Of a DNA stretch of 31,376 nt, positions 15,640 through 30,637 are shown one piece after another. Location of the stretch: the NCBI GenBank assembly GCA_009927565.1, contig RFMT01000382.1:1-31376 (forward strand), in the 5' to 3' direction. The stretch is from Acidimicrobiia bacterium. Its GTDB lineage: Bacteria; Actinomycetota; Acidimicrobiia; Acidimicrobiales; Ilumatobacteraceae. Within the stretch, counting starts at the first letter, position 1. Each line of letters opens with the position of its first letter. Made by a program: the position numbers and the translations under genes. The notes beneath the pieces are model-generated. The model did not search any database, was not told the origin of the DNA, and saw only the letters and a list, made by a program, of their open reading frames with translations.

Positions 15640-18107
15640 ATGGCAGATCTCCCGACAAATGCTCGTGTCGTAATTGTCGGTGGAGGCATCGTTGGATGCA
15701 GCGTTGCCTATCACCTCGCCTTGCGTGGATGCACTGACGTCGTACTGCTCGAACGCAAGCAACTTACTTGTGGCACCACCTGGCACGCTGCAGGTCTTGT
15801 CGGCCAATTGCGTGCGACTCATAACCTGACACGACTTGCTCAATACACAACGAACCTTTTCAAATCGCTCGAAGACGTAACCGGCCAGGCGACAGGTTTT
15901 CAGCAGCGCGGCTCGGTTGCAGTAGCCCCAAATCACGAGCGATTCGAAGAACTAAAACGTGGTGCTTCGATGGCCCGCGTGTTCGGACTCGACGTCAACA
16001 TTATTTCACCTAAAGAAATCGCCGACCTCGTACCTTTGGCACGCGTCGATGATTTGGTTGGCGGTGTGCATCTTCCAAACGACGGAGTTGTCAACCCAAT
16101 TGACACGACGCAAGCACTGGCAAAAGGCGCCCGTTCTCATGGCGTAAAAATTTTTGAAAATGTCAAAGTTGACTCAATAATCGTCGAAGACGGCCGAGCA
16201 GTCGGTGTGAAAACAACGCTGGGCGATGGCAGCAATGCCAAAAGTGAAATTAGAAGCGAATTTGTCGTCAATTGTGCGGGCATGTGGGCGCGCGAACTTG
16301 GCGATGCCGCTGGCGCAGTCGTTCCGCTTCACGCTGCCGAACACTTCTACATCGTTACCGAGGCCGTGCCCGATATTCGCCGAACATGCCGGTGCTTCGC
16401 GACCCTGATGGCTGCGGATACTTCAAGGAAGACGCCGGCAAACTTTTGGTCGGTTGGTTCGAGCCAGTTGCAAAACCTTGGGGCATGAAGGGCATTTCAG
16501 AAGACTTCTCGTTCACCTCACTGCCAGAAGATTTTGAGCACATCGAGCCGTTGGTCGCGGCTGCTACTCATCGAATGCCGTTGCTTGCAAAAACCGGCAT
16601 CAGATTGTTTTTCAATGGTCCTGAGTCGTTCACTCCCGATGATCGATATTTGCTCGGCGAGTCACCGGATGTTGAAAATCTCTTTGTCGCCGCGGGCTTC
16701 AACTCAATTGGCATTCAGTCATCAGGTGGCGCGGGCAAAGTTCTCGCAGACTGGATTCTCGATGGCAAGCCCCCAATGGATCTTTGGGACGTCGATGTTC
16801 GTCGCTCGATGCCATATCAGCGAAACAAGAAATATCTTCACGATCGCACTGTCGAAACGCTCGGCTTGCTTTATGCGATGCACTGGCCATTTCGTCAGCC
16901 AGAAACAGCTCGCGGCGTTCGCAAATCGGTGCTGCACGATCGCCTCGCCGACCGAGGCGCCTGCTTCGGCGAAGTCGCTGGTTGGGAGCGCACCAATTGG
17001 TTTGCCCCTGCAGGCGTGAAACCCGAATACATATATACGTATGGCAAACAGAACTGGTTCAAATATTCTGCCGAAGAGCACCACGCTGTTCGCAATCAAG
17101 TTGGTCTGTTTGATCAGTCATCGTTCGGCAAATTCATTTTGCAAGGACCAGATGCGATGTCGGTGCTCAATCAAATTTGCGCCAACGAAGTTGATGTGCC
17201 TGTCGGCAAAATCGTCTACACACAGTGGCTGAACGAAACTGGCGGCATCGAAGCCGACCTCACGGTCACACGCCAGGCAATCGACTCGTATTTGATTGTC
17301 ACAGCAGCCGCGACCCAGGTGCGTGACTTTGCATGGCTTCGCGACCACATCCCACCTTCGGCGCGGGCGATGGCGATAGACGTTTCATCAGGTCAAGCAG
17401 TTTTAAGTGTGATGGGGCCAAACTCTCGAGCGTTGCTTTCGTCGCTCACACCCGACGATCTTTCAAACGAGGCATTTGGGTTCGGCACGTCAAAAATTAT
17501 CGACCTGGCATATGCCCGCGTTCGAGCAAATCGCATCACTTATGTCGGCGAACTCGGTTGGGAAATTTACATTCCGACTGAATTTGCAATGGGTGTTTTC
17601 GACGCCATCACGAACACAGGCAAAGACTTTGGCTTGCGACATGCCGGTTACCACGCGCTCAACTCATTGCGCACCGAAAAGGGCTACCGCCACTGGGGAC
17701 ACGACGTCTCGCCCGACGACACACCACTCGAAGCCGGCCTTGGTTTCGTTGTTGCAATGAATAAACGCGACGGCTTTATAGGTCGAGATGCACTTGCGAA
17801 ACAAAAAGAAACAGGCCTCAACAAGCGAATGGTCCAATTCTCGCTTGCCGACCCTGAGCGCTTGCTCTATCACAACGAACCGATCTGGCGCGACGGCGAA
17901 ATAGTCGGCAGCATCACATCTGGCATGTTCGGCCACACGGTTAACGCTTCGCTTGGCATGGGTTACGTAACGAACAAAAACGGTCTTGTCGACAAATCTT
18001 TTGTCACAGATGCAAAATACGAAATCGAAGTTGCCGGCGAGCGCATTAGCGCCACCGCTTCGCTCGATCCGTTCTATGATCCCAAGAGTTTGCGCGTCAA
18101 GTCGTAA
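15640..18107 (+). CDS. GcvT-family FAD-dependent oxidoreductase (sarcosine/dimethylglycine dehydrogenase-like) with an apparent -1 frameshift near 16375-16377
   Basis: VGGGIVG and TTWHAAG in ORF 15640-16488; NGPESFTPD, FNSIGI and SLRTEKGY in ORF 16272-18107. Adding one base at GATATT^CGCCG restores ..VPDI(S/P)PNMPVLRDPD... RBS AGAGG upstream. Confidence 0.9.
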
Positions 18108-20679: not shown

Positions 20680-20830
20680 ACAAATATGCTAGCGGTGGCT
20701 GAAAATATGGGTTTTACGGCTTGCCACAAATCACACTGGCCCAATGTGTGTGCTTATATTACTAGTGGAAATTGTTTAAGGTCGCAACAATGTGGTCACA
20801 GTTTCTGAAATACCTACCGGAGGTCATTTA

Positions 20831-21580
20831 ATGGAAAAGCTTGTTACAGGCAATGACCAATTGGTTTACAACGCGTTTTCTTTCGCCGTAGCGGCGATGG
20901 CAATCTCGTTTGTCTACTATTTGGTCTCTCGAAGCCGCGTTTCTCCTGCGTATCGCAGTGCAGTAACGATGTCGGCAATGATTTGCGGTATCGCCGCTTA
21001 TCACTACTGGAGAATGTTCAGCAATTTTGCTGATGGTGCTCCATGGAACGAAGGTTACCGCTACGCAGACTGGTTGCTCACTGTGCCACTACTTGTTGCA
21101 GAACTCGTGGTCGTCTCGGGCGTCGCCAAAGAAAAAGCAAGCGGTTTGACAACAAAACTTGCTCTTGCTGCAGTTTTGATGATCGCAACCGGCTATCCAG
21201 GCGAAACAGCCGCCGCAGGCAGCGATGCCAGCATGATCTGGTTCGTCGTTTCGATGATTTTCTTTGTCTACATTCTCTGGAACTTGTTCGCAGGTGAAGT
21301 TGGCAAAGCCCTCAAAGGTCAGTCTGGCGAAATCGGCAAGAAGCTCAACAACCTTCGCTATGTGTTGTTGGTGACTTGGTCGGTTTATCCAATCGCTTAC
21401 CTCTTGGGTGACAGCGAGAGTTTCTTGGCCAAAGCACTTGATCTCACACCAGGTGACTCATCGACTCTTATCCAAGTCGGTTACACAGTTGCCGACGTTT
21501 TGGCTAAGCCAGGTTACGGTCTTTTGATCTTGGGCATTGCAATCGCTCGCTCAAAGGCCGAAGGTTACCGCGAAGCGTAA
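20831..21580 (+). CDS. Microbial (type 1) rhodopsin, DTE-motif outward proton pump, xanthorhodopsin/MACR-like
   Basis: Seven hydrophobic segments; helix C RYADWLLTVPLLVAE (D85/T89/E96 in BR numbering); helix B His (AYHY); helix G DVLAKPGYG (retinal Lys). RBS GGAGG before ATG 20831. Confidence 0.96.
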   Translation: MEKLVTGNDQLVYNAFSFAVAAMAISFVYYLVSRSRVSPAYRSAVTMSAMICGIAAYHYWRMFSNFADGAPWNEGYRYADWLLTVPLLVAELVVVSGVAKEKASGLTTKLALAAVLMIATGYPGETAAAGSDASMIWFVVSMIFFVYILWNLFAGEVGKALKGQSGEIGKKLNNLRYVLLVTWSVYPIAYLLGDSESFLAKALDLTPGDSSTLIQVGYTVADVLAKPGYGLLILGIAIARSKAEGYREA

Positions 21581-23187: not shown

Positions 23188-23237
23188 AATCCACGAGACT
23201 ACTCGTCCAAACAAACTGTGCGCACTAGATTTTGAAG

Positions 23238-24146
23238 GTGCTAAAAAACCAAAGAGTTATCGGTACGGCACTCGTGATGATGTCAAGTCTTGGTTTTTCA
23301 ATCGGACCAACCCTGGCGAAATATGCATATGACGCGGGCACGAACCCACTCGGCGTGATGACAATTCGTTTTACGATCGCAAGTTTGTTCATGTTGATCA
23401 TTCGACAGATTTTGATGCGCGGTGAACCAATGCCGTCTTTACGGGTGCTCCTAGAAATGTTTACAGTCGGCACACTTGGCATTACCACCGTCTCGTTCAC
23501 TTACTTTCTGGCGATTGAAGATATTGATACCGGTCTGGCAATCGTTATTTGGTATTGCAATCCGCTTGTAGTGGTTTTCATCTCATGGATAATTTACAAA
23601 AAGCGACCATCGCGCAATATCGTCATCTCGCTCTTTTTTTCGATTACTGGCATTGCAATCACTACGGGTCAGGTCAAGAGTGGCTCGAGCGGTGCGATCA
23701 TATTAATTTTTGTTTCTGCGTTTCTCTTTGCTTTTTATCTTCTCGGTCTGTCAAACACACTGAAAAAAACTGACCTGCTAACTGGCGTCACGTTTATCAA
23801 CATCGGCGCAATGCTCGGCTATTGGTTGATTTGTGCGATTCTGCCATTTGATTTGACGGTTGAATTTCCGTCGAACGCCAAAAGTTGGCTGTACATCGGG
23901 GCCTTTGGTTTGTTTGGCACCGTAGTGCCGTTCATGTTTTCGTTTGCCGGCATGAAGCGGGTTGGTCCCAGCATGCTTTCGGTGATTACAACTATTGAAC
24001 CAATACTGGCAATCATGATGGGCATAATTTTTCTCGGCGAGCCACTCACTACGCCACGCGTAATTGGTGCGATTTTCGTAATTGGCGCACTGATTGCGCT
24101 GACTTTGCTCGAAAGCCGCGATGAAGCAGCCCTCGAGCGAAGCTAG
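23238..24146 (+). CDS. EamA/DMT-family transporter
   Basis: Two EamA-like halves with about 10 TM segments; motif SVITTIEPILA. The GTG start lies 6 nt after TAGATT. Confidence 0.88.
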   Translation: MLKNQRVIGTALVMMSSLGFSIGPTLAKYAYDAGTNPLGVMTIRFTIASLFMLIIRQILMRGEPMPSLRVLLEMFTVGTLGITTVSFTYFLAIEDIDTGLAIVIWYCNPLVVVFISWIIYKKRPSRNIVISLFFSITGIAITTGQVKSGSSGAIILIFVSAFLFAFYLLGLSNTLKKTDLLTGVTFINIGAMLGYWLICAILPFDLTVEFPSNAKSWLYIGAFGLFGTVVPFMFSFAGMKRVGPSMLSVITTIEPILAIMMGIIFLGEPLTTPRVIGAIFVIGALIALTLLESRDEAALERS

Positions 24147-24152
24147 CTAATT

Positions 24153-27100
24153 TCAACTGTTCAGCGCTGCCTTTTGCTCAGGCGTTAGTGCCTTTACGAA
24201 CGCTGGTTTCAACGCTTTTTCTTGGGCGGGTGTCATTGCTGCCAACTTCTCGTTGCTAAAACCTGCCGCCGATTTGGCAGTGAGTGCGGCAACCGCGGCG
24301 GGTTTCATAGCAACTATGGATTCAGCCGGCAAGGCCTCGACTTGATTTGCTTTCAAACCGGCCATCGCCGTCGGTGGCAACGCACCAACTTGTTGCGGAG
24401 TCATCGACGCCATCGCCGCAGGCGGCAACGCACCAACCTGAGTCGGCTTCATCGCCCCGAACGCAGCAGCAGGCAACGCACCCACCTGCTCAGGGTTGAA
24501 CGAACCGAAAGCATTCGCCGGTATCGCCCCCAACTGTGTCGGTTTGATCGACGCCATGACCTCGGGTGCGAGAGCACCAACTTGAGCGGGTTTGAATCCC
24601 GTGAAAGCCGTGGGTGGCATCGCTTTGAATTGACCTGGGTTCATCGCCGAAAAAGTTTCGGGCGAAAGTTTTGCGGCGTCGGTCGGTTTGAAATTACTGA
24701 ACGCATTTGCCGGAACCTTGTCGACGTTCCATCCGGTCAACGCACCAGCCAATGCCGTCGCATTGCCGACGTTGGTCGGCGCAGCATTTGCCGCGGGGTT
24801 AAACGCCTGCTGTGGCAAAGCTTGACGTTGCTCGGGGCTCATTGACGCAATTACTTCAGGAGATAATGACTTGAACTGCAAGGGCGAAATCACCGCCAGT
24901 GCGGTCGGCGGCATTGAGTCCATTTGGTTTGGCGTGAACACTTTCATCGCCGAGGCCGGAATCACCTTGAATTGATTTTGCTGCATTCCCGCCATTGCGT
25001 CTGGAGGAAGCGCAGCAAATTGTGCGGGCTTGAAGCCGATCATGGCTTGTGGCGGTAGCGCGGCGAACTGATCTTGCTGAATGCCAGTCATCGCTGCGGG
25101 CGGCAGCACTTTGAATTGACTCAACTGCATACCCGCCATCGCCGCAGGTGGAAGTTCGGCCATCTGATCGGGCTTCAAACCAGTCATTGCACTCGGCGGA
25201 AGAACAGAAAGCTGTTGAGGTTTGAAACCGGCCATCGCCTCGGGTGGCAATGCCGCCATCTGATCTGGTTTAAAACCAACCATTGCCGTCGGTGGTAACT
25301 GCGCAAACTGATCGGGTCTAAAACCTGCCATCGCATTCGGGGGCAGCTGAGCAAACTGATCAGGTTTGAAGCCGGCCATCGCCGCAGGTGGCAACTGGGC
25401 AAACTGATCGGGTTTGAAACCTGTCATTGCACTCGGCGGAAGAACAGAAAACTGATCAGGTTTGAAACCTGCCATCGCTTCGGGTGGCAACGCCGCCATC
25501 TGGTCGGGCTTGAAACCAACCATTGCCGTCGGCGGCAACTGAGCCATCTGATCAGGTCTGAAACCCGCCATAGCCGTCGGCGGCAACTGAGCCATCTGAT
25601 CAGGTCTAAAGCCCGCCATCGCCTCTGGTGGCAACTGAGCCATTTGATTTTGGTTGAAACCTGCCATCGCCGCGGGGTTCAGATTATTGATCTGATTGCG
25701 ATCGAATCCCGCCATGGCTGTCGGTGGCAGAGCTGCAAATTGGTTCGGCTGAAAATTTTGCAAAGCACCCGCGCCAAGAGAGCGTGCGTCATCAGGTCGA
25801 AAACCCATAAAATTGTCAGGGCGCAAGTTGACCATGTCCGAACCGTTCAACGCGTTCGGGTTTTGAATCATTCCACCTGGGCCAAAATTGATTCCTGGGC
25901 CAACATTGCATGGCGGCAGTGGCGGTGGTCCGCAATTTGTCGGCGCGGGGCCGATAGGCGCGGGGCCGACCGGTCCACCTGGGCCAGCGGGTGCTCCTCC
26001 GCCACCACTCGGTGCCGAAACTGGTGGCGCTACTGCTGTGAACTGATATTGACCAGCGGTCACGGCACTTGCCGTCGCGTTGCCCGCACCATCGACAAAT
26101 GCCCCGGAGTCAATGAGCAAGAAATATGTGGTCGATGCCGTCAAGTTTGCCGCAGGGTTGAGCACAACACCCATTCCAGCCTTTGATGAAGTGACGCTTG
26201 CGGACGGAAACGTAAACGTCTCGACAGGAGTCGCGCAATCTGCGTCACCCGTGCAAAGTCGAATCGTCTTGGTCGCCACCGTCGAAACGGCTTCGCTGAA
26301 CGCCAGTTCAATGTTGCGATCCAACACGAAATTAGGCATGTTGTGTGGTGGATCTGATTGATTCACGTTCAATACCGGCGCGACCGTGTCAGGGCTCGCC
26401 TCAAATCGCCACGCGGTCGTGCTTGTTAGCGCGGCGTTCGGGTTGCCCGCTAAGTCGGTGAACGCACCTGCTTCGAACGTGACGTAGTAACTAGTCGCAG
26501 GGTCTATCACCAAATTTTGGGTTGATGTTTTGCCAGTTCGCGTGATCGTGATTAGGGCACCCGAATTGTTTGGAAATTGCGTTATTGCAGTTTCACTTTG
26601 AGCGCCAATTGTGATCGTCTCGTGCAGAATATTGCCCGTGGCTCTGTAGATAAACAGTTTCTTGCCGTTAACCACTGCCATGTTTTCAGGAAATATCAAA
26701 CTCAGCGCTTGAGTCGCCTGCACGCCGACCGCACCAGGAAACGGCATGAATCCTTGCGGCGCGGGCGCGGTGTTGTCGATCACGATGTTCTTGTTGGCAT
26801 TAAGCGAACCGCTGGCCATAGATGCGGGCACAGCGGTGCTCGCGGTCACGCCACTCATCGTGACGCCAGCAGGCAGATTGAAACCTGTGACGTTTAGTCT
26901 TTGACCCGACTGGGCCAGCGTCGAATCGATAGCGCCAATTGTGTAGGTAAATGTCAAGGTGTTCGTGCCCGAGCCACTGGCATAAGTTGCCACAGCGCTT
27001 GCGCCTGAATTAAGCGTCAGTTCGGGGTTACCACCGGCAACGGTTACCGATTGATTGAATCGCACCTGAATCGAAGTGGCGCCACCAGAGCGGTAACAAC

Positions 27101-28511
27101 CATCGGAGGTTGACGATGTAATGTTTGTGACAACTGCGGGCGATGTCGCAGTCGTAAAGTTCCAAGTTGTGGCGTTTGAAATGCCCGCAAAGGCGTTCGC
27201 GCGACCGTCACGAATCGCACCTGCACCAACCTTGACGTGCACGGCAGTGCTGCCTGGCAATGTGGCGCTTGGGTTGACCGTCATCGTGAACGGCGAAACG
27301 CTCGTGAACGCAACGCGAGTGCTGTCAAGAGTCGGTATCGCTTCGACTACTCGCAGGGCTGTCGAGCCACCTGCGGCCGCAGTCGAGCCGAGGTCTGAAA
27401 CATTGGCCACGTTTGCCGAACTAGCCGCGGTGCCCGCTGCCGCTTTTGTCAGATTGACAGCGAAGGTGTTTGCATCTGCCGCCGTTACTACAAACGCACC
27501 GTTGCTCTCTTTTTGCGACAGACCCGCAATCAACACGACGTCACCCACCACAAAACCATGACTAGTTGAGGTCAATGTCGCGACATTGCTAGCAATCGCA
27601 ATGTTCGTGATCGTCTTTGCAGTGTCGGCGTCGGCGGCGACTGTGACATAACGCAACGGGGCAATCACGCCTCCCGTCATAGTCGACGATTCGTTGGTGC
27701 AACCGATCGCATACGAAATATTTCGGCCAGTTACGGCCGTGACTCTGAAATAAGTTTTGCTACCAGTGCCAGCATCATAATTTGGGCCGACTTGATAAGG
27801 ATAAATCAGGTCACCGACAACAACATCGTGGTCACGTTGAGCGACGACTGTCGCCGTGTTGCCCCCAGCACACGAACGAGATGTCACTGATATGTAAGGT
27901 GTCGCCGCTTCAGTTGTTGTGAGCACCAAATTTGAGGTGCTGGCAACATCACTTGCCGAATCTGCAGGCGAGTATGTCGAAGCCGTCGGTGCAGTGACAT
28001 CAACCGACAAAAATACTGACGCACCACCGCATGCAAGATTGCTACACAGACCACCAGAGAGTGCAGTCGTAGTCGCAGAGATGGTGTCAAAACCAGTGAC
28101 TGTCAATGTTGCGCTGTTGGCCAGCGTCAACGAAGTCGGTCCAAAAGACACTTGTGAGGTATCGGTGCTCAAGACCGTGTAAGGAAACACCAGACAATTG
28201 TTGGTGCCACCCGCGTTGCTCTCACGCGCCCCTGCCCATGAGATGCCGGTTGCAGCACGAGTATTGAGAAATAGTTTTACGTCGGCATTTGCACCACCGA
28301 CCCGACCGACAGAACCTTGGAAACAGACATAAACACTGATCGTGTCGCCGGTGCTCAGCGTCGTGCCACTTGAGGCGATCGGCGTGGCGTTAATCACCGA
28401 AATTGTTGACGGTGCGGCACGCACGGGCGAAACTAGCCCGCCGAGCAAAGTCAAAGTCGACATCAACAACGCAACCAAACCTTTTTGCCAAGGTCGCATA
28501 GTCAGGATCAT
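24153..28511 (-). CDS. Large secreted/surface protein (1452 aa): signal peptide, about five Ig-like domains (three SbsA/Big_5-like), Pro/Gly linker, C-terminal octapeptide-repeat region
   Basis: N-terminal K/R, hydrophobic stretch and VRA-A cleavage site. Repeated D(V/N/T)xAP...AGAFxDxAGN motifs and SGSGTNTLTFTYT. Residues 888-1452 consist of 8-aa repeats. Confidence 0.85.
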   Translation of the reverse strand: MILTMRPWQKGLVALLMSTLTLLGGLVSPVRAAPSTISVINATPIASSGTTLSTGDTISVYVCFQGSVGRVGGANADVKLFLNTRAATGISWAGARESNAGGTNNCLVFPYTVLSTDTSQVSFGPTSLTLANSATLTVTGFDTISATTTALSGGLCSNLACGGASVFLSVDVTAPTASTYSPADSASDVASTSNLVLTTTEAATPYISVTSRSCAGGNTATVVAQRDHDVVVGDLIYPYQVGPNYDAGTGSKTYFRVTAVTGRNISYAIGCTNESSTMTGGVIAPLRYVTVAADADTAKTITNIAIASNVATLTSTSHGFVVGDVVLIAGLSQKESNGAFVVTAADANTFAVNLTKAAAGTAASSANVANVSDLGSTAAAGGSTALRVVEAIPTLDSTRVAFTSVSPFTMTVNPSATLPGSTAVHVKVGAGAIRDGRANAFAGISNATTWNFTTATSPAVVTNITSSTSDGCYRSGGATSIQVRFNQSVTVAGGNPELTLNSGASAVATYASGSGTNTLTFTYTIGAIDSTLAQSGQRLNVTGFNLPAGVTMSGVTASTAVPASMASGSLNANKNIVIDNTAPAPQGFMPFPGAVGVQATQALSLIFPENMAVVNGKKLFIYRATGNILHETITIGAQSETAITQFPNNSGALITITRTGKTSTQNLVIDPATSYYVTFEAGAFTDLAGNPNAALTSTTAWRFEASPDTVAPVLNVNQSDPPHNMPNFVLDRNIELAFSEAVSTVATKTIRLCTGDADCATPVETFTFPSASVTSSKAGMGVVLNPAANLTASTTYFLLIDSGAFVDGAGNATASAVTAGQYQFTAVAPPVSAPSGGGGAPAGPGGPVGPAPIGPAPTNCGPPPLPPCNVGPGINFGPGGMIQNPNALNGSDMVNLRPDNFMGFRPDDARSLGAGALQNFQPNQFAALPPTAMAGFDRNQINNLNPAAMAGFNQNQMAQLPPEAMAGFRPDQMAQLPPTAMAGFRPDQMAQLPPTAMVGFKPDQMAALPPEAMAGFKPDQFSVLPPSAMTGFKPDQFAQLPPAAMAGFKPDQFAQLPPNAMAGFRPDQFAQLPPTAMVGFKPDQMAALPPEAMAGFKPQQLSVLPPSAMTGLKPDQMAELPPAAMAGMQLSQFKVLPPAAMTGIQQDQFAALPPQAMIGFKPAQFAALPPDAMAGMQQNQFKVIPASAMKVFTPNQMDSMPPTALAVISPLQFKSLSPEVIASMSPEQRQALPQQAFNPAANAAPTNVGNATALAGALTGWNVDKVPANAFSNFKPTDAAKLSPETFSAMNPGQFKAMPPTAFTGFKPAQVGALAPEVMASIKPTQLGAIPANAFGSFNPEQVGALPAAAFGAMKPTQVGALPPAAMASMTPQQVGALPPTAMAGLKANQVEALPAESIVAMKPAAVAALTAKSAAGFSNEKLAAMTPAQEKALKPAFVKALTPEQKAALNS
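24156..25850 (-). repeat. Coding tandem repeat: about 68 x 24-nt (8-aa) units with a 48-nt (16-aa) period; core FKPDQMAQ-LPPTAMAG
   Basis: By hand count, 44 units, an 18-aa interruption, then 24 units. A 35-nt exact repeat occurs at 25525 and 25573 (offset 48) and a 28-nt exact repeat at 25183 and 25423 (offset 240). Confidence 0.95.
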
Positions 28512-28540
28512 CTCATCCCCCTAATAAATATAAATGCTAC

Positions 28541-28571
28541 TCTTATTAAGAATATAATCTACTATTAGATT
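28541..28571. promoter_or_regulatory. Divergent promoter region with two adjacent inverted repeats (candidate TetR operators)
   Basis: TCTTA-T-TAAGA (28541-28551) and AATCTA-CTAT-TAGATT (28556-28571) flank or overlap a perfect TATAAT (28553-28558) in an AT-rich 104-bp intergenic gap. Confidence 0.5.
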
Positions 28572-28615
28572 TTGTCATCGGCAAGTCGCAATTCACCTAG
28601 AATTCGGGGCAACAA

Positions 28616-29869
28616 ATGCTTTTTAATTCGACGCCTTCGCCAGCAATTGCCAAACGTGCCCCGTCGACTCGGGCCCAGGCGAACAAAGCCAAGATGATCA
28701 AGGCAATAGTTCGCAATGCCGCCGACCACGGGCTTGATCAACTCAGCATTGGCCAAGTGGCAAAACGCGCTGGTCTAACCACCGGGGCAATTTACGGTCG
28801 GTATGAAGACCGTGACGAATTGGCCATCGAACTTTGGCACTCAGTCATTAAAGAGCCACTCAGAGCACGCCTTGAACGAGGGGTCGAGTTCATGGCCGCC
28901 AACGTGCGCATCTCGCGAACGCGTGATATGACGCCACTGACAAACGACGAATTGCTGGCACTGATCATTAGCGACTTCGAGTCACCAGATGAAATTGCCA
29001 AAATCGGCGCCGAATTCTTGGTCGTCGCGCGTCGCGACCTCGCAATTGGCGAAGTTGTTATCCCTGAAGTTTCAGGTTGGCTCACAGATCTTGGCCTAGT
29101 CAATTCGCAATCGGCGATCGACAAGGCGGCAATTGTCATCGCACTTTCGGCGTCTATCGGCACGGCCCTGCGTGCGTTTGTGTTCAAATCAAATCCGAGT
29201 TGGTATTTAATCGCTGACGGCTTGCGCTCTGCAGCGGCGGCAGCCCAACCAACACAACAACAAGCCGATATTGAAGCACCTCACTGGACAGATCCGCAGA
29301 CCGAAAACCCGGTGCGCACGGCGTTGATCTACGCCGTGGCAGAAGTCGTTGCCAAGTCGGGATATGCCAACGCCACAATTTCTAGAATTGTTCGTCGTGC
29401 GGGGTTGACAAACGGCTCGCTATACAACTTGTATGCCGACAAAGAAGCCCTTACCGACGACGCGATGCAAATTTTTCTGAACCTTGCGTCAGATGTTAAC
29501 CGCGAAAGCAATGCCCGTGCCGAGACACAGTTGCGAATTGATCGCGGTCTCACCGATAGTTTCATGCTTGCGTTTATGCCGCATCGTCGTCAATGGCTTG
29601 ATTTTCGCCTTGAGTGCTTAATTGCCTCGCGCGATCACCTGCCAACGCGAAGAAAATTCAGGCAAAGCCTCGAGCGATCAAGAGACAACCTCGCCGCGAC
29701 GATGCCTGACTTGGCGCAGGAAACTATCAACTTGCTTTCGAGTGGCGAACAGGCGATCGGTATCGGGTTGACGACTCTTGGGCCATATACGACTCTCGTG
29801 CAAGACGGCGACTATTTCTCGATTATGGCCAAACTCTCAGAACAGAACAGACTTCTGAATTCAAAATAA
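28616..29869 (+). CDS. Tandem (double) TetR-family transcriptional regulator
   Basis: Two TetR HTH domains, SIGQVAKRAGLTTGAIYGRY (aa ~44-63) and TISRIVRRAGLTNGSLYNLY (aa ~254-273), each followed by a helical domain. The start codon is uncertain. Confidence 0.85.
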   Translation: MLFNSTPSPAIAKRAPSTRAQANKAKMIKAIVRNAADHGLDQLSIGQVAKRAGLTTGAIYGRYEDRDELAIELWHSVIKEPLRARLERGVEFMAANVRISRTRDMTPLTNDELLALIISDFESPDEIAKIGAEFLVVARRDLAIGEVVIPEVSGWLTDLGLVNSQSAIDKAAIVIALSASIGTALRAFVFKSNPSWYLIADGLRSAAAAAQPTQQQADIEAPHWTDPQTENPVRTALIYAVAEVVAKSGYANATISRIVRRAGLTNGSLYNLYADKEALTDDAMQIFLNLASDVNRESNARAETQLRIDRGLTDSFMLAFMPHRRQWLDFRLECLIASRDHLPTRRKFRQSLERSRDNLAATMPDLAQETINLLSSGEQAIGIGLTTLGPYTTLVQDGDYFSIMAKLSEQNRLLNSK

Positions 29870-29872
29870 CTA

Positions 29873-30637
29873 TCAAGAAAACGGTGGCGCAGGAATATAT
29901 TGACAGATCGGTTGACCTGCCATCACCGTCCACTGCGAACCAGGTATGCGTTCGGTCAGTGCACGCATCGCCAAATCGCCCGCGATCGAGATTTCCATCA
30001 CGCCCATGCTGAACGACTTGGCATATTCGCGTGCGAGTTCACTAACCAACGGCGTGTCTAAAAAGCCCGGACATAACGCGCTGATGCAAACGCCGTGTGG
30101 CTCGAGTGCCGGACCAAGAGATTTCACGAGGCCCACCATCGCATGCTTGGTTAGTCCGTAAATTGGGTCGGGCGCGATGGCGATAATGCCCGCCAGCGAC
30201 GCAGTTACCAAAATATGGCCGCTCTTGCGAGCAACCATTCCCGGAATAACCGCACGCGCGCCATAGACGACACCGTCAACATTGATGCTCATGATGCGCT
30301 CGTAAGCGTCGTTGTCGAGTTTTTCGAGCGGAAAATTCGAGATGTTGCCAATTACGTTTTGATGCGTCGAGACACCTGCGTTGAGACACACAATGTCAAA
30401 CGGCTCAAATGTCGGTATCAATTTTTGCCAGGCTTGCGAATCAGTCACGTCAAGGTGCACATATTCACCGCCTACTTCAACTGCTACTTGCTTGCCGAGC
30501 GTGTCGTTGACATCAGCAACGACAACTGTTGCTCCTTCGCGCGTAAATCGGCGTGCCATCTCTGCGCCAATACCACTTGCACCGCCAGTAATAAATGCTC
30601 GATGCCCCGCCAATTGCCCCGTCGTGTCGTTGCCCAT
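29873..30637 (-). CDS. SDR-family oxidoreductase
   Basis: TGGASGIG, NAG, ASLAG and YGLTK catalytic motif. Confidence 0.93.
   Translation of the reverse strand: MGNDTTGQLAGHRAFITGGASGIGAEMARRFTREGATVVVADVNDTLGKQVAVEVGGEYVHLDVTDSQAWQKLIPTFEPFDIVCLNAGVSTHQNVIGNISNFPLEKLDNDAYERIMSINVDGVVYGARAVIPGMVARKSGHILVTASLAGIIAIAPDPIYGLTKHAMVGLVKSLGPALEPHGVCISALCPGFLDTPLVSELAREYAKSFSMGVMEISIAGDLAMRALTERIPGSQWTVMAGQPICQYIPAPPFS

Follow-up and report, generated by a model that had tools for sequence, protein, structure and literature searches.

A locus on contig RFMT01000382.1 of the Acidimicrobiia bacterium assembly GCA_009927565.1 (Ilumatobacteraceae) poses the question of whether a TetR-family regulator governs the very large secreted protein encoded divergently from it and, if so, through which DNA element. 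The window analysed here is the whole stretch of 31,376 nt (positions 1 to 31,376 of that contig), and the locus comprises a gene for a 1452-aa secreted repeat protein, its proposed target (24153..28511, minus strand; hereafter the giant gene), a gene for a 417-aa single-chain tandem TetR (28616..29869, plus strand) and the 104-bp intergenic region that separates them (28512..28615). The first-pass annotation, made from the window sequence alone, had described the two open reading frames as facing away from an AT-rich gap and had proposed that the TetR controls the exported protein through it. Both frames and the composition of the gap (35% GC, against ~51% for the window) agree with that description, and the proposed control is well supported, at the level of sequence, by the conserved pairing of the two genes, by the overlap of a conserved operator with a predicted promoter and by the co-occurrence of that operator with the TetR gene. 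The reading that we favour, with a probability of roughly 65%, is that a pair of TetR molecules on the operator would keep both genes repressed, with release by a ligand; the locus is most likely a switch dedicated to turning a costly and variable surface protein on and off.

The gap had originally drawn attention for two different inverted repeats placed around a TATAAT hexamer. Taken on the window alone, this symmetry is close to chance: the inverted repeats have perfect arms of 5-6 bp, dinucleotide shuffles reach their number in 4.4% of cases and their longest arm in 20%, and an automated repeat search of the window sequence reported no inverted repeat in the gap. The operator was defined by comparing ~30 related loci, with block statistics taken from 23 non-redundant orthologous gaps. 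The comparison reveals a conserved 43-bp element (28525-28567) in which a 21-bp bipartite unit (TAAGAnTA-N5-TAyAyTTA) occurs twice, in opposite orientations. Four 8-bp blocks (28525-32, 28538-45, 28547-54 and 28560-67) hold 1.0-2.0 bits per position, and the spacers between them, of 5, 1 and 5 nt, are of low information. The consensus, TAAATATA-N5-TACTCTTA-n-TAAGAGTA-N5-TATATTTA, is a 43-bp composite palindrome centred on 28546, in which the right half (TAAGAnTA-N5-TATATTTA, 21 bp) constitutes the asymmetric unit and the left half its reverse complement. In the window, operator unit 1 (TAAGAGTA-N5-TATATTTA, minus strand, 28525..28545) scores 26.9 bits with a matrix of the unit, and operator unit 2 (TAAGAATA-N5-TACTATTA, plus strand, 28547..28567) scores 20.4 bits. 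The centre of this element, which is strongly conserved, is the first of the repeats noted earlier, TCTTA-T-TAAGA (28541-28551); the other repeat (28556-28571) and the TATAAT hexamer (28553-28558) are particular to this genome. TATAAT was accordingly rejected as a conserved -10 element, relatives carrying TAGAAA, TAGTAA or TAGAGC in its place. The distance from the blocks to the TetR start is fixed, at 75-81 nt, in most of the closer loci (63-70% TetR identity). The TetR leader contains one more short inverted repeat, AATTC-N5-GAATT (28590..28604), 12-26 nt ahead of the start codon. About half of the orthologous gaps retain it, and the G016/G017 group has another sequence in its place; this third repeat may represent an additional site or an element of the leader.

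The distribution of this element ties it to the TetR gene. A tree of the tandem TetRs unites three clades, A (which includes the window), B and C, with 100/100 support, the order of branching among the three not being settled. A 44-bp operator matrix was built from the relatives, the window being left out for the genome scan. Across the 1.64-Mb (73% complete) assembly, its sole site is the one at 28525 (41.7 bits forward, 39.9 bits reverse); everywhere else the scores stay at or below 8 bits. A regulon search with the 15-mer core, allowing up to 3 mismatches, returned 17 matches vs 33 in a reversed control, and the core is thus not enriched. On present evidence, the TetR regulon would therefore consist of the window locus alone. 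The scores of the same matrix are 32-67 bits throughout the clade-A loci, nine of which had no part in its construction, and -4.6 bits or less in five TetR-less giant loci (G051, G047, G005, G022 and G048), in the second giant locus of G022 and in three empty sites; it finds no site in clades B or C. Because high scores are restricted to TetR-carrying clade-A loci, the operator appears to have been gained and lost together with the TetR. This distribution also bears on the possibility that the blocks are overlapping divergent promoter elements, AT-rich and -10-like, or the site of another DNA-binding protein. Each block reads TA....TA, which resembles TAnnnT, and the weak repeat statistics of the window would suit such an origin; however, the blocks are present only where there is a TetR gene and vanish with it, they follow a strict 22-bp periodic bipartite layout whose unit is flipped between subclades, and the site is unique in the genome, all of which makes this explanation improbable. 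A chance juxtaposition devoid of functional meaning can call on the same single-sequence repeat statistics and on nothing further, and is scarcely credible in the face of a conserved pairing, a unique site and an operator that co-occurs with the TetR.

The position of the operator within the gap suggests how it might act. A promoter scan of the giant-gene strand identified 2 sites vs 0.4 expected, and the predicted promoter of the giant gene (28549..28578, minus strand) combines a -35 element, ATGACA (28573-28578), with a -10 element inside operator unit 2, which may be TATTCT (28549-28554, 18-nt spacer) or TATATT (28551-28556, 16-nt spacer). Of the 23 non-redundant orthologous gaps, 15 have a perfect TTGACA at 16-18 nt from a -10 hexamer of the form TAnnnT, which in 13 of the 15 coincides with an operator half-site, TA[T/C]T[C/T]T. 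The giant gene is thus predicted to have a strong sigma-A-type promoter whose -10 and start region lie under the operator. The operator likely covers the putative promoter of the TetR gene as well, the most consistent candidate for which uses the TATATT of the outer block. TetRs encoded less than 200 bp from a divergent neighbor repressed it in 5/5 cases tested, a rule stated irrespective of what the neighbor encodes (PMC3511530), and the proposed repression of the giant gene agrees with it. The first-pass annotation had called such a target unusual for a TetR, which overstates the case: targets that diverge from a TetR at distances of less than 200 bp vary widely in kind, and most of them are not pumps (PMC3511530). 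The TetR could conversely be an activator, or a dual regulator, of the giant gene instead of a simple repressor. A few TetR-family proteins do activate, such as AtrA (PMC3511530), and the gaps of clade B carry a palindrome of their own (GGAATAG...CTATTCC, with a conserved CCTTGACA) whose position is downstream of the predicted -10 instead of over it. Nonetheless, the operator overlaps the -10 and start of a near-consensus promoter that should need no activator, and TetR-less alleles have a separate promoter, and we give activation or dual control little chance of being correct.

Returning to repression by a pair of TetR molecules, the layout of the units is informative about how the operator might be read. 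In each clade-A gap, the unit matrix locates a pair of bipartite units with a spacing of 22 bp. The window belongs to subclade A1, where the upstream member of the pair is inverted, scoring 25-30 bits on the minus strand vs ~10 on the plus strand; in subclade A2 (L118, L120-L123, L029 and L030) both units point in the same direction, with the caveat for these orientation calls that the bipartite unit is itself partly symmetric. The recognition helices read GLSTGSIYSR and SGLSNGSLY in A2 vs GLTTGAIYGR and AGLTNGSLY otherwise. A constant two-turn spacing combined with free unit orientation fits a self-contained single-chain reader that would place one molecule on each unit, and lends this model indirect support. 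In the L031/L064 locus (metagenome contig SXGS01121582.1), from a subclade of 55-56% identity, there are three tandem bipartite units instead of two, the half-sites are altered to TAAGTATA and TACACCTA, and the second helix-turn-helix (HTH) reads GLANG vs GLTNG elsewhere; these helix and half-site changes may represent co-variation of protein and site.

Pfam TetR_N (PF00440, E 5.3e-17) matches two stretches of the 417-aa product, in line with the two HTHs seen at first inspection: HTH1 at aa 28-73 (28697-28834, plus strand) and HTH2 at aa ~234-280 (29315-29455, plus strand). The two halves are alike in the HTH only, with 33% identity over 46 aa. An AlphaFold 2 model generated from a 56-sequence alignment reached a predicted local distance difference test score (pLDDT) of 93.4 and a predicted template modelling score (pTM) of 0.92, an earlier run on a shallow 18-sequence alignment (pLDDT 56) having been discarded; according to this model, the TetR is predicted to fold as a single-chain pseudo-dimer with two non-identical HTHs. 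A Foldseek search of the PDB with the model returned Mce3R (9b7y_A) as the top and sole full-length match (436 columns, E 8.5e-8, template modelling scores 0.52/0.56, 17% identity), the remaining matches spanning one half only, and among Swiss-Prot structures Mce3R and Bacillus subtilis YxbF rank as the top two. A phmmer match to Mce3R covers one half only (E 1.2e-4), identity to Mce3R is 16-17%, and orthology was rejected, Mce3R falling outside the 60 best PDB matches of the family profile. Relatives of ~400 aa are numerous (170 clusters at E<1e-10 with HMMER), and the literature describes single-chain tandem TetRs as an actinobacterial family whose prototype is Mce3R (PMC3711444, PMC11667970). 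With regard to the ligand, the BetI likeness of each half at fold level is a weak lead towards a quaternary amine; considered as a basis for assignment, the BetI- and FadR-like matches of the halves are generic fold matches to which no ligand can be attached, and the betaine and methylamine genes found elsewhere in the window were likewise set aside as evidence for one.

If the TetR serves the giant gene, the two should travel together, and they largely do. A TetR orthologue (57-70% identity) is found in 15/36 species genomes of the genus, and a Big_5 giant gene lies divergently upstream of it in 12/12 species-representative genomes with upstream DNA. The pairing is also seen in 17/17 metagenome contigs with enough upstream DNA (TetR 50-100% identical), and the giant gene adjoins TetRs of 56-57% identity on contigs as well. 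Many contigs stop short within the giant gene, whose repeats presumably interrupt assembly. In clade B (33-36% TetR identity, 59-60% GC) a Big_5 protein is encoded divergently upstream in L075, L077, L079 and L133; L076/L132 have no upstream Big_5 protein, and in L078 and L081 the assembly lacks the gene upstream. The tandem TetRs of clade C (39-42% identity) have unrelated neighbors, so the same TetR subfamily is wired to quite different genes. In L069, L072 and L074 of this clade, the TetR either ends a co-directional gene run (biotin carboxylase, a Lys/Asp-type tRNA synthetase, a THDP succinyltransferase-like protein and nitroreductase) or diverges from a BNR-repeat protein.

The giant gene and the TetR gene are flanked by an EamA transporter gene (23232-24146, plus strand) and a short-chain dehydrogenase (SDR) gene (29873-30637, minus strand), and comparison of this site across the genus reveals three states. 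In the empty state, seen in G012 (93% complete, 10 contigs), G004 and G018, EamA and SDR abut with 48-63 bp between them, and TetR and giant gene are therefore missing together. In the giant-only state, represented by G051 (94% complete, 3 contigs), G047, G005 and G022, the giant gene stands beside SDR with no TetR; its product is 59-71% identical to the window protein in the C-terminal repeat domain and divergent in the N-terminal part. The upstream regions of these giant-only genes are conserved among G051, G047 and G005, lack the four blocks and differ from the window gap. The SDR and EamA genes were considered as the real target of the TetR and rejected, since both are retained and highly conserved (87-96% and 63-93% identity) regardless of the TetR; no operator was found near either of them. 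The best explanation for this arrangement is a self-contained two-gene regulatory cassette inserted between the conserved EamA and SDR genes. The same site admits another interpretation, in which the TetR regulates only itself, or acts on genes elsewhere, and stands next to the giant gene because both are carried in a hypervariable island. The EamA/SDR site is indeed variable, a hotspot seen in three states; where the TetR is absent, a different promoter region precedes the giant gene; and clade C TetRs adjoin unrelated genes. Against this, the best promoter in the gap faces the giant gene with its -10 inside the operator, the assembly holds no second operator site, and another lineage, with TetRs of 33-36% identity, shows the pairing again; we judge joint carriage alone unlikely, though less so than the other alternatives weighed here.

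Several observations nonetheless weigh against repression of the giant gene by the TetR. At least five congeners have the giant gene at the same site with neither TetR nor operator; the pairing, although kept at every orthologous TetR locus that could be examined, is therefore not obligate, and since the giant gene works without TetR in several congeners, its regulation is optional. All clade-A loci come from one genus-level lineage, and the counts drawn from them are not independent. The half-sites are AT-rich and -10-like, and part of their conservation could be that of promoter sequence. For the TetR gene's own promoter there are several weak candidates in the gap, none of them consistent across loci. 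The unit matrix was built from A1, and the second unit of A2 scores lower with it. Finally, the sequencing runs listed as containing the locus include no RNA-seq run, a result with no bearing on expression level.

The proposed target is a secreted protein of modular build. The earlier description of an exported immunoglobulin (Ig)-like repeat protein is confirmed by a Sec-type signal peptide at aa 1-33 (...VRA/AP; 28413..28511, minus strand), which contains the sole strongly hydrophobic 19-aa window of the protein, and by domains above Pfam gathering scores: Big_5 (PF13205; 77.2 bits, cut-off 23.6; E 1.9e-21 for the whole protein) and ALTTAQ_rpt (PF20080; 61.8 bits, cut-off 26.4). By per-segment matches, two tandem Big_5 (SbsA-type) Ig-like domains occupy aa 580-825 (segments 580-703 and 709-825; 26037..26774, minus strand), preceded by a partial Big_5 match at aa 393-454 (27150-27335, minus strand). 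A Pro/Gly-rich linker with a cysteine pair (Cys860 and Cys868) covers aa ~829-880 (25872..26027, minus strand), and all 11 cysteines fall within the N-terminal 870 residues. The ALTTAQ-repeat domain fills the C-terminus (aa ~881-1452; 24156..25871, minus strand), with the strongest Pfam signal at aa 1240-1452; its neighbors in the ESM Atlas are all ALTTAQ clusters. The repeat had been described as an octapeptide. Its true period is 16 aa (48 bp in tandem in the DNA), of which the 8-aa element is a half-unit of the Pfam repeat, and the identity autocorrelation of the domain is 0.46 at 16, 0.19 at 8 and 0.08 at 7 or 9.

The domains of the protein give no sign of a cell anchor. The protein has no LPXTG motif and no C-terminal membrane anchor, its C-terminus being polar, which sets it apart from the sortase-anchored class, and Pfam and NCBIfam searches returned no SLH or other anchor domain of the kind that would indicate S-layer anchoring. 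Big_5 is also found in S-layer proteins, and by that analogy a role as a coat is conceivable. Across loci, identity is 58-85% in the C-terminal repeat part and 33-72% in the N-terminal Ig part. Secretion, a variable N-terminal Ig part, conserved repeats and a hypervariable genomic site together fit an exposed surface or adhesive structure whose conserved repeats would be cell-proximal. A literature search found no paper on 'ALTTAQ' and no relevant one on 'PF20080', and hence no published function for any ALTTAQ_rpt member. Some congeners carry more than one such protein: G022 (contigs C25/C43 and C29; L044, L045 and L110) has two giant ALTTAQ proteins, one encoded at the EamA/SDR site without a TetR and a second copy, of 1550 aa, elsewhere, and G008 likewise has two giant copies.

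The related loci come, by their record names, from freshwater acIV / Ilumatobacteraceae metagenome-assembled genomes, and the sequencing runs containing DNA of the locus are nearly all lake or freshwater metagenomes. Two further features of the window deserve mention. A bacteriorhodopsin-family gene (20792-21580, E 2.9e-39) lies between FdhD and PF03601 membrane protein genes, with MttB, a dimethylglycine/sarcosine dehydrogenase and further one-carbon/betaine genes upstream of it. At 15640-18107, a second DAO/FAO_M/GCV_T flavoprotein of the dimethylglycine/sarcosine dehydrogenase type is divided between two overlapping frames, 15640-16488 (DAO positions 1-236) and 16272-18107 (DAO 243-353, FAO_M and GCV_T), in what looks like a frameshift or assembly error near 16272-16488.

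In the mechanism that we propose, each TetR molecule would read one asymmetric 21-bp unit, and two molecules would occupy the 43-bp operator at a 2:1 stoichiometry, on units 22 bp apart. Bound TetR would block the promoter of the giant gene, and probably its own promoter too, and a small ligand would free the TetR from the operator, as in the TetR/tetA paradigm. Acidimicrobiia of the acIV group are among the most abundant freshwater bacteria, and to our knowledge almost nothing is known of their surface and its regulation. The locus offers a precise hypothesis in this setting, namely one regulator, one 43-bp site and one target, for which the TetR-less and empty alleles provide natural controls. 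It would also supply a second, much simpler case than Mce3R for bipartite DNA reading by single-chain tandem TetRs, which could aid the design of orthogonal single-chain repressors, and a first regulatory context for the uncharacterised ALTTAQ repeat family. More tentatively, and in a view that we would expect to need revision, the three states of one hypervariable surface-protein locus (ligand-switchable, unregulated and empty), found within a single genus of abundant lake actinobacteria with streamlined genomes, might amount to a natural polymorphism in the deployment of a costly structure, probably exposed to phages or grazers, with a TetR that reads 21-bp units flipped between subclades; the locus could then be the cleanest natural model for DNA recognition by a fused TetR pseudo-dimer.

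The first-pass annotation had presented the locus as a candidate undescribed system. That goes too far, since all of its parts belong to known families and tandem TetRs have been described (PMC3711444, PMC11667970). The closest known counterpart of the regulator is Mce3R (Rv1963c of Mycobacterium tuberculosis; PDB 9b7y), which is likewise actinobacterial, ~400 aa long and built of two non-identical HTHs and two ligand-domain-like halves, and is likewise encoded divergently from its target and autoregulated, autoregulation being a prediction for the TetR of the window. Mce3R binds a 25-bp asymmetric site per monomer via its two different HTHs (PMC11667970); an asymmetric bipartite site of ~21-25 bp per monomer is thus established for Mce3R and would apply to the window TetR by our reading of its operator. 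The two systems differ in layout, Mce3R having two non-palindromic sites 53 bp apart in an 898-bp gap, whereas here the units abut with a 22-bp period and form a palindrome in a 104-bp gap. They also differ in scope, as Mce3R regulates a lipid-transport and redox regulon, and here the sole genomic site is local and the putative target is a secreted repeat protein.

With cassettes of the TetR/tetA type, the subject of the '200-bp rule' of Ahn, Cuthbertson and Nodwell (PMC3511530), the locus shares divergent genes, a gap of less than 200 bp (104 bp here), an operator placed over predicted promoters, and predicted autoregulation and ligand release. It departs from them in having a fused pseudo-dimer in place of a homodimer and a 1452-aa exported structural protein in place of a pump or enzyme. 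A TetR-family repressor linked to surface adhesion is known from staphylococci, in which the homodimeric IcaR is encoded divergently from icaADBC, the polysaccharide synthesis operon for adhesion. The likeness is one of arrangement, a TetR-family repressor encoded divergently from genes for a surface adhesion factor; unlike the TetR here, IcaR forms a classical homodimer and acts on a polysaccharide operon instead of on one large protein, and the two are related in sequence only as members of the family. A literature search for TetR-regulated adhesins returned mostly uses of tetracycline-inducible vectors. The giant protein joins the extracellular repeat proteins with Big_5 (PF13205) or ALTTAQ_rpt (PF20080), carrying both domains, and a link between such proteins and a dedicated TetR has not been described before. 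In design, the locus is a classical TetR cassette in which the repressor is fused and the target unusual; the features that set it apart from the systems above are the class of that target, a dedicated single-site regulon, a compact four-block operator with a flippable unit and a three-state polymorphism.

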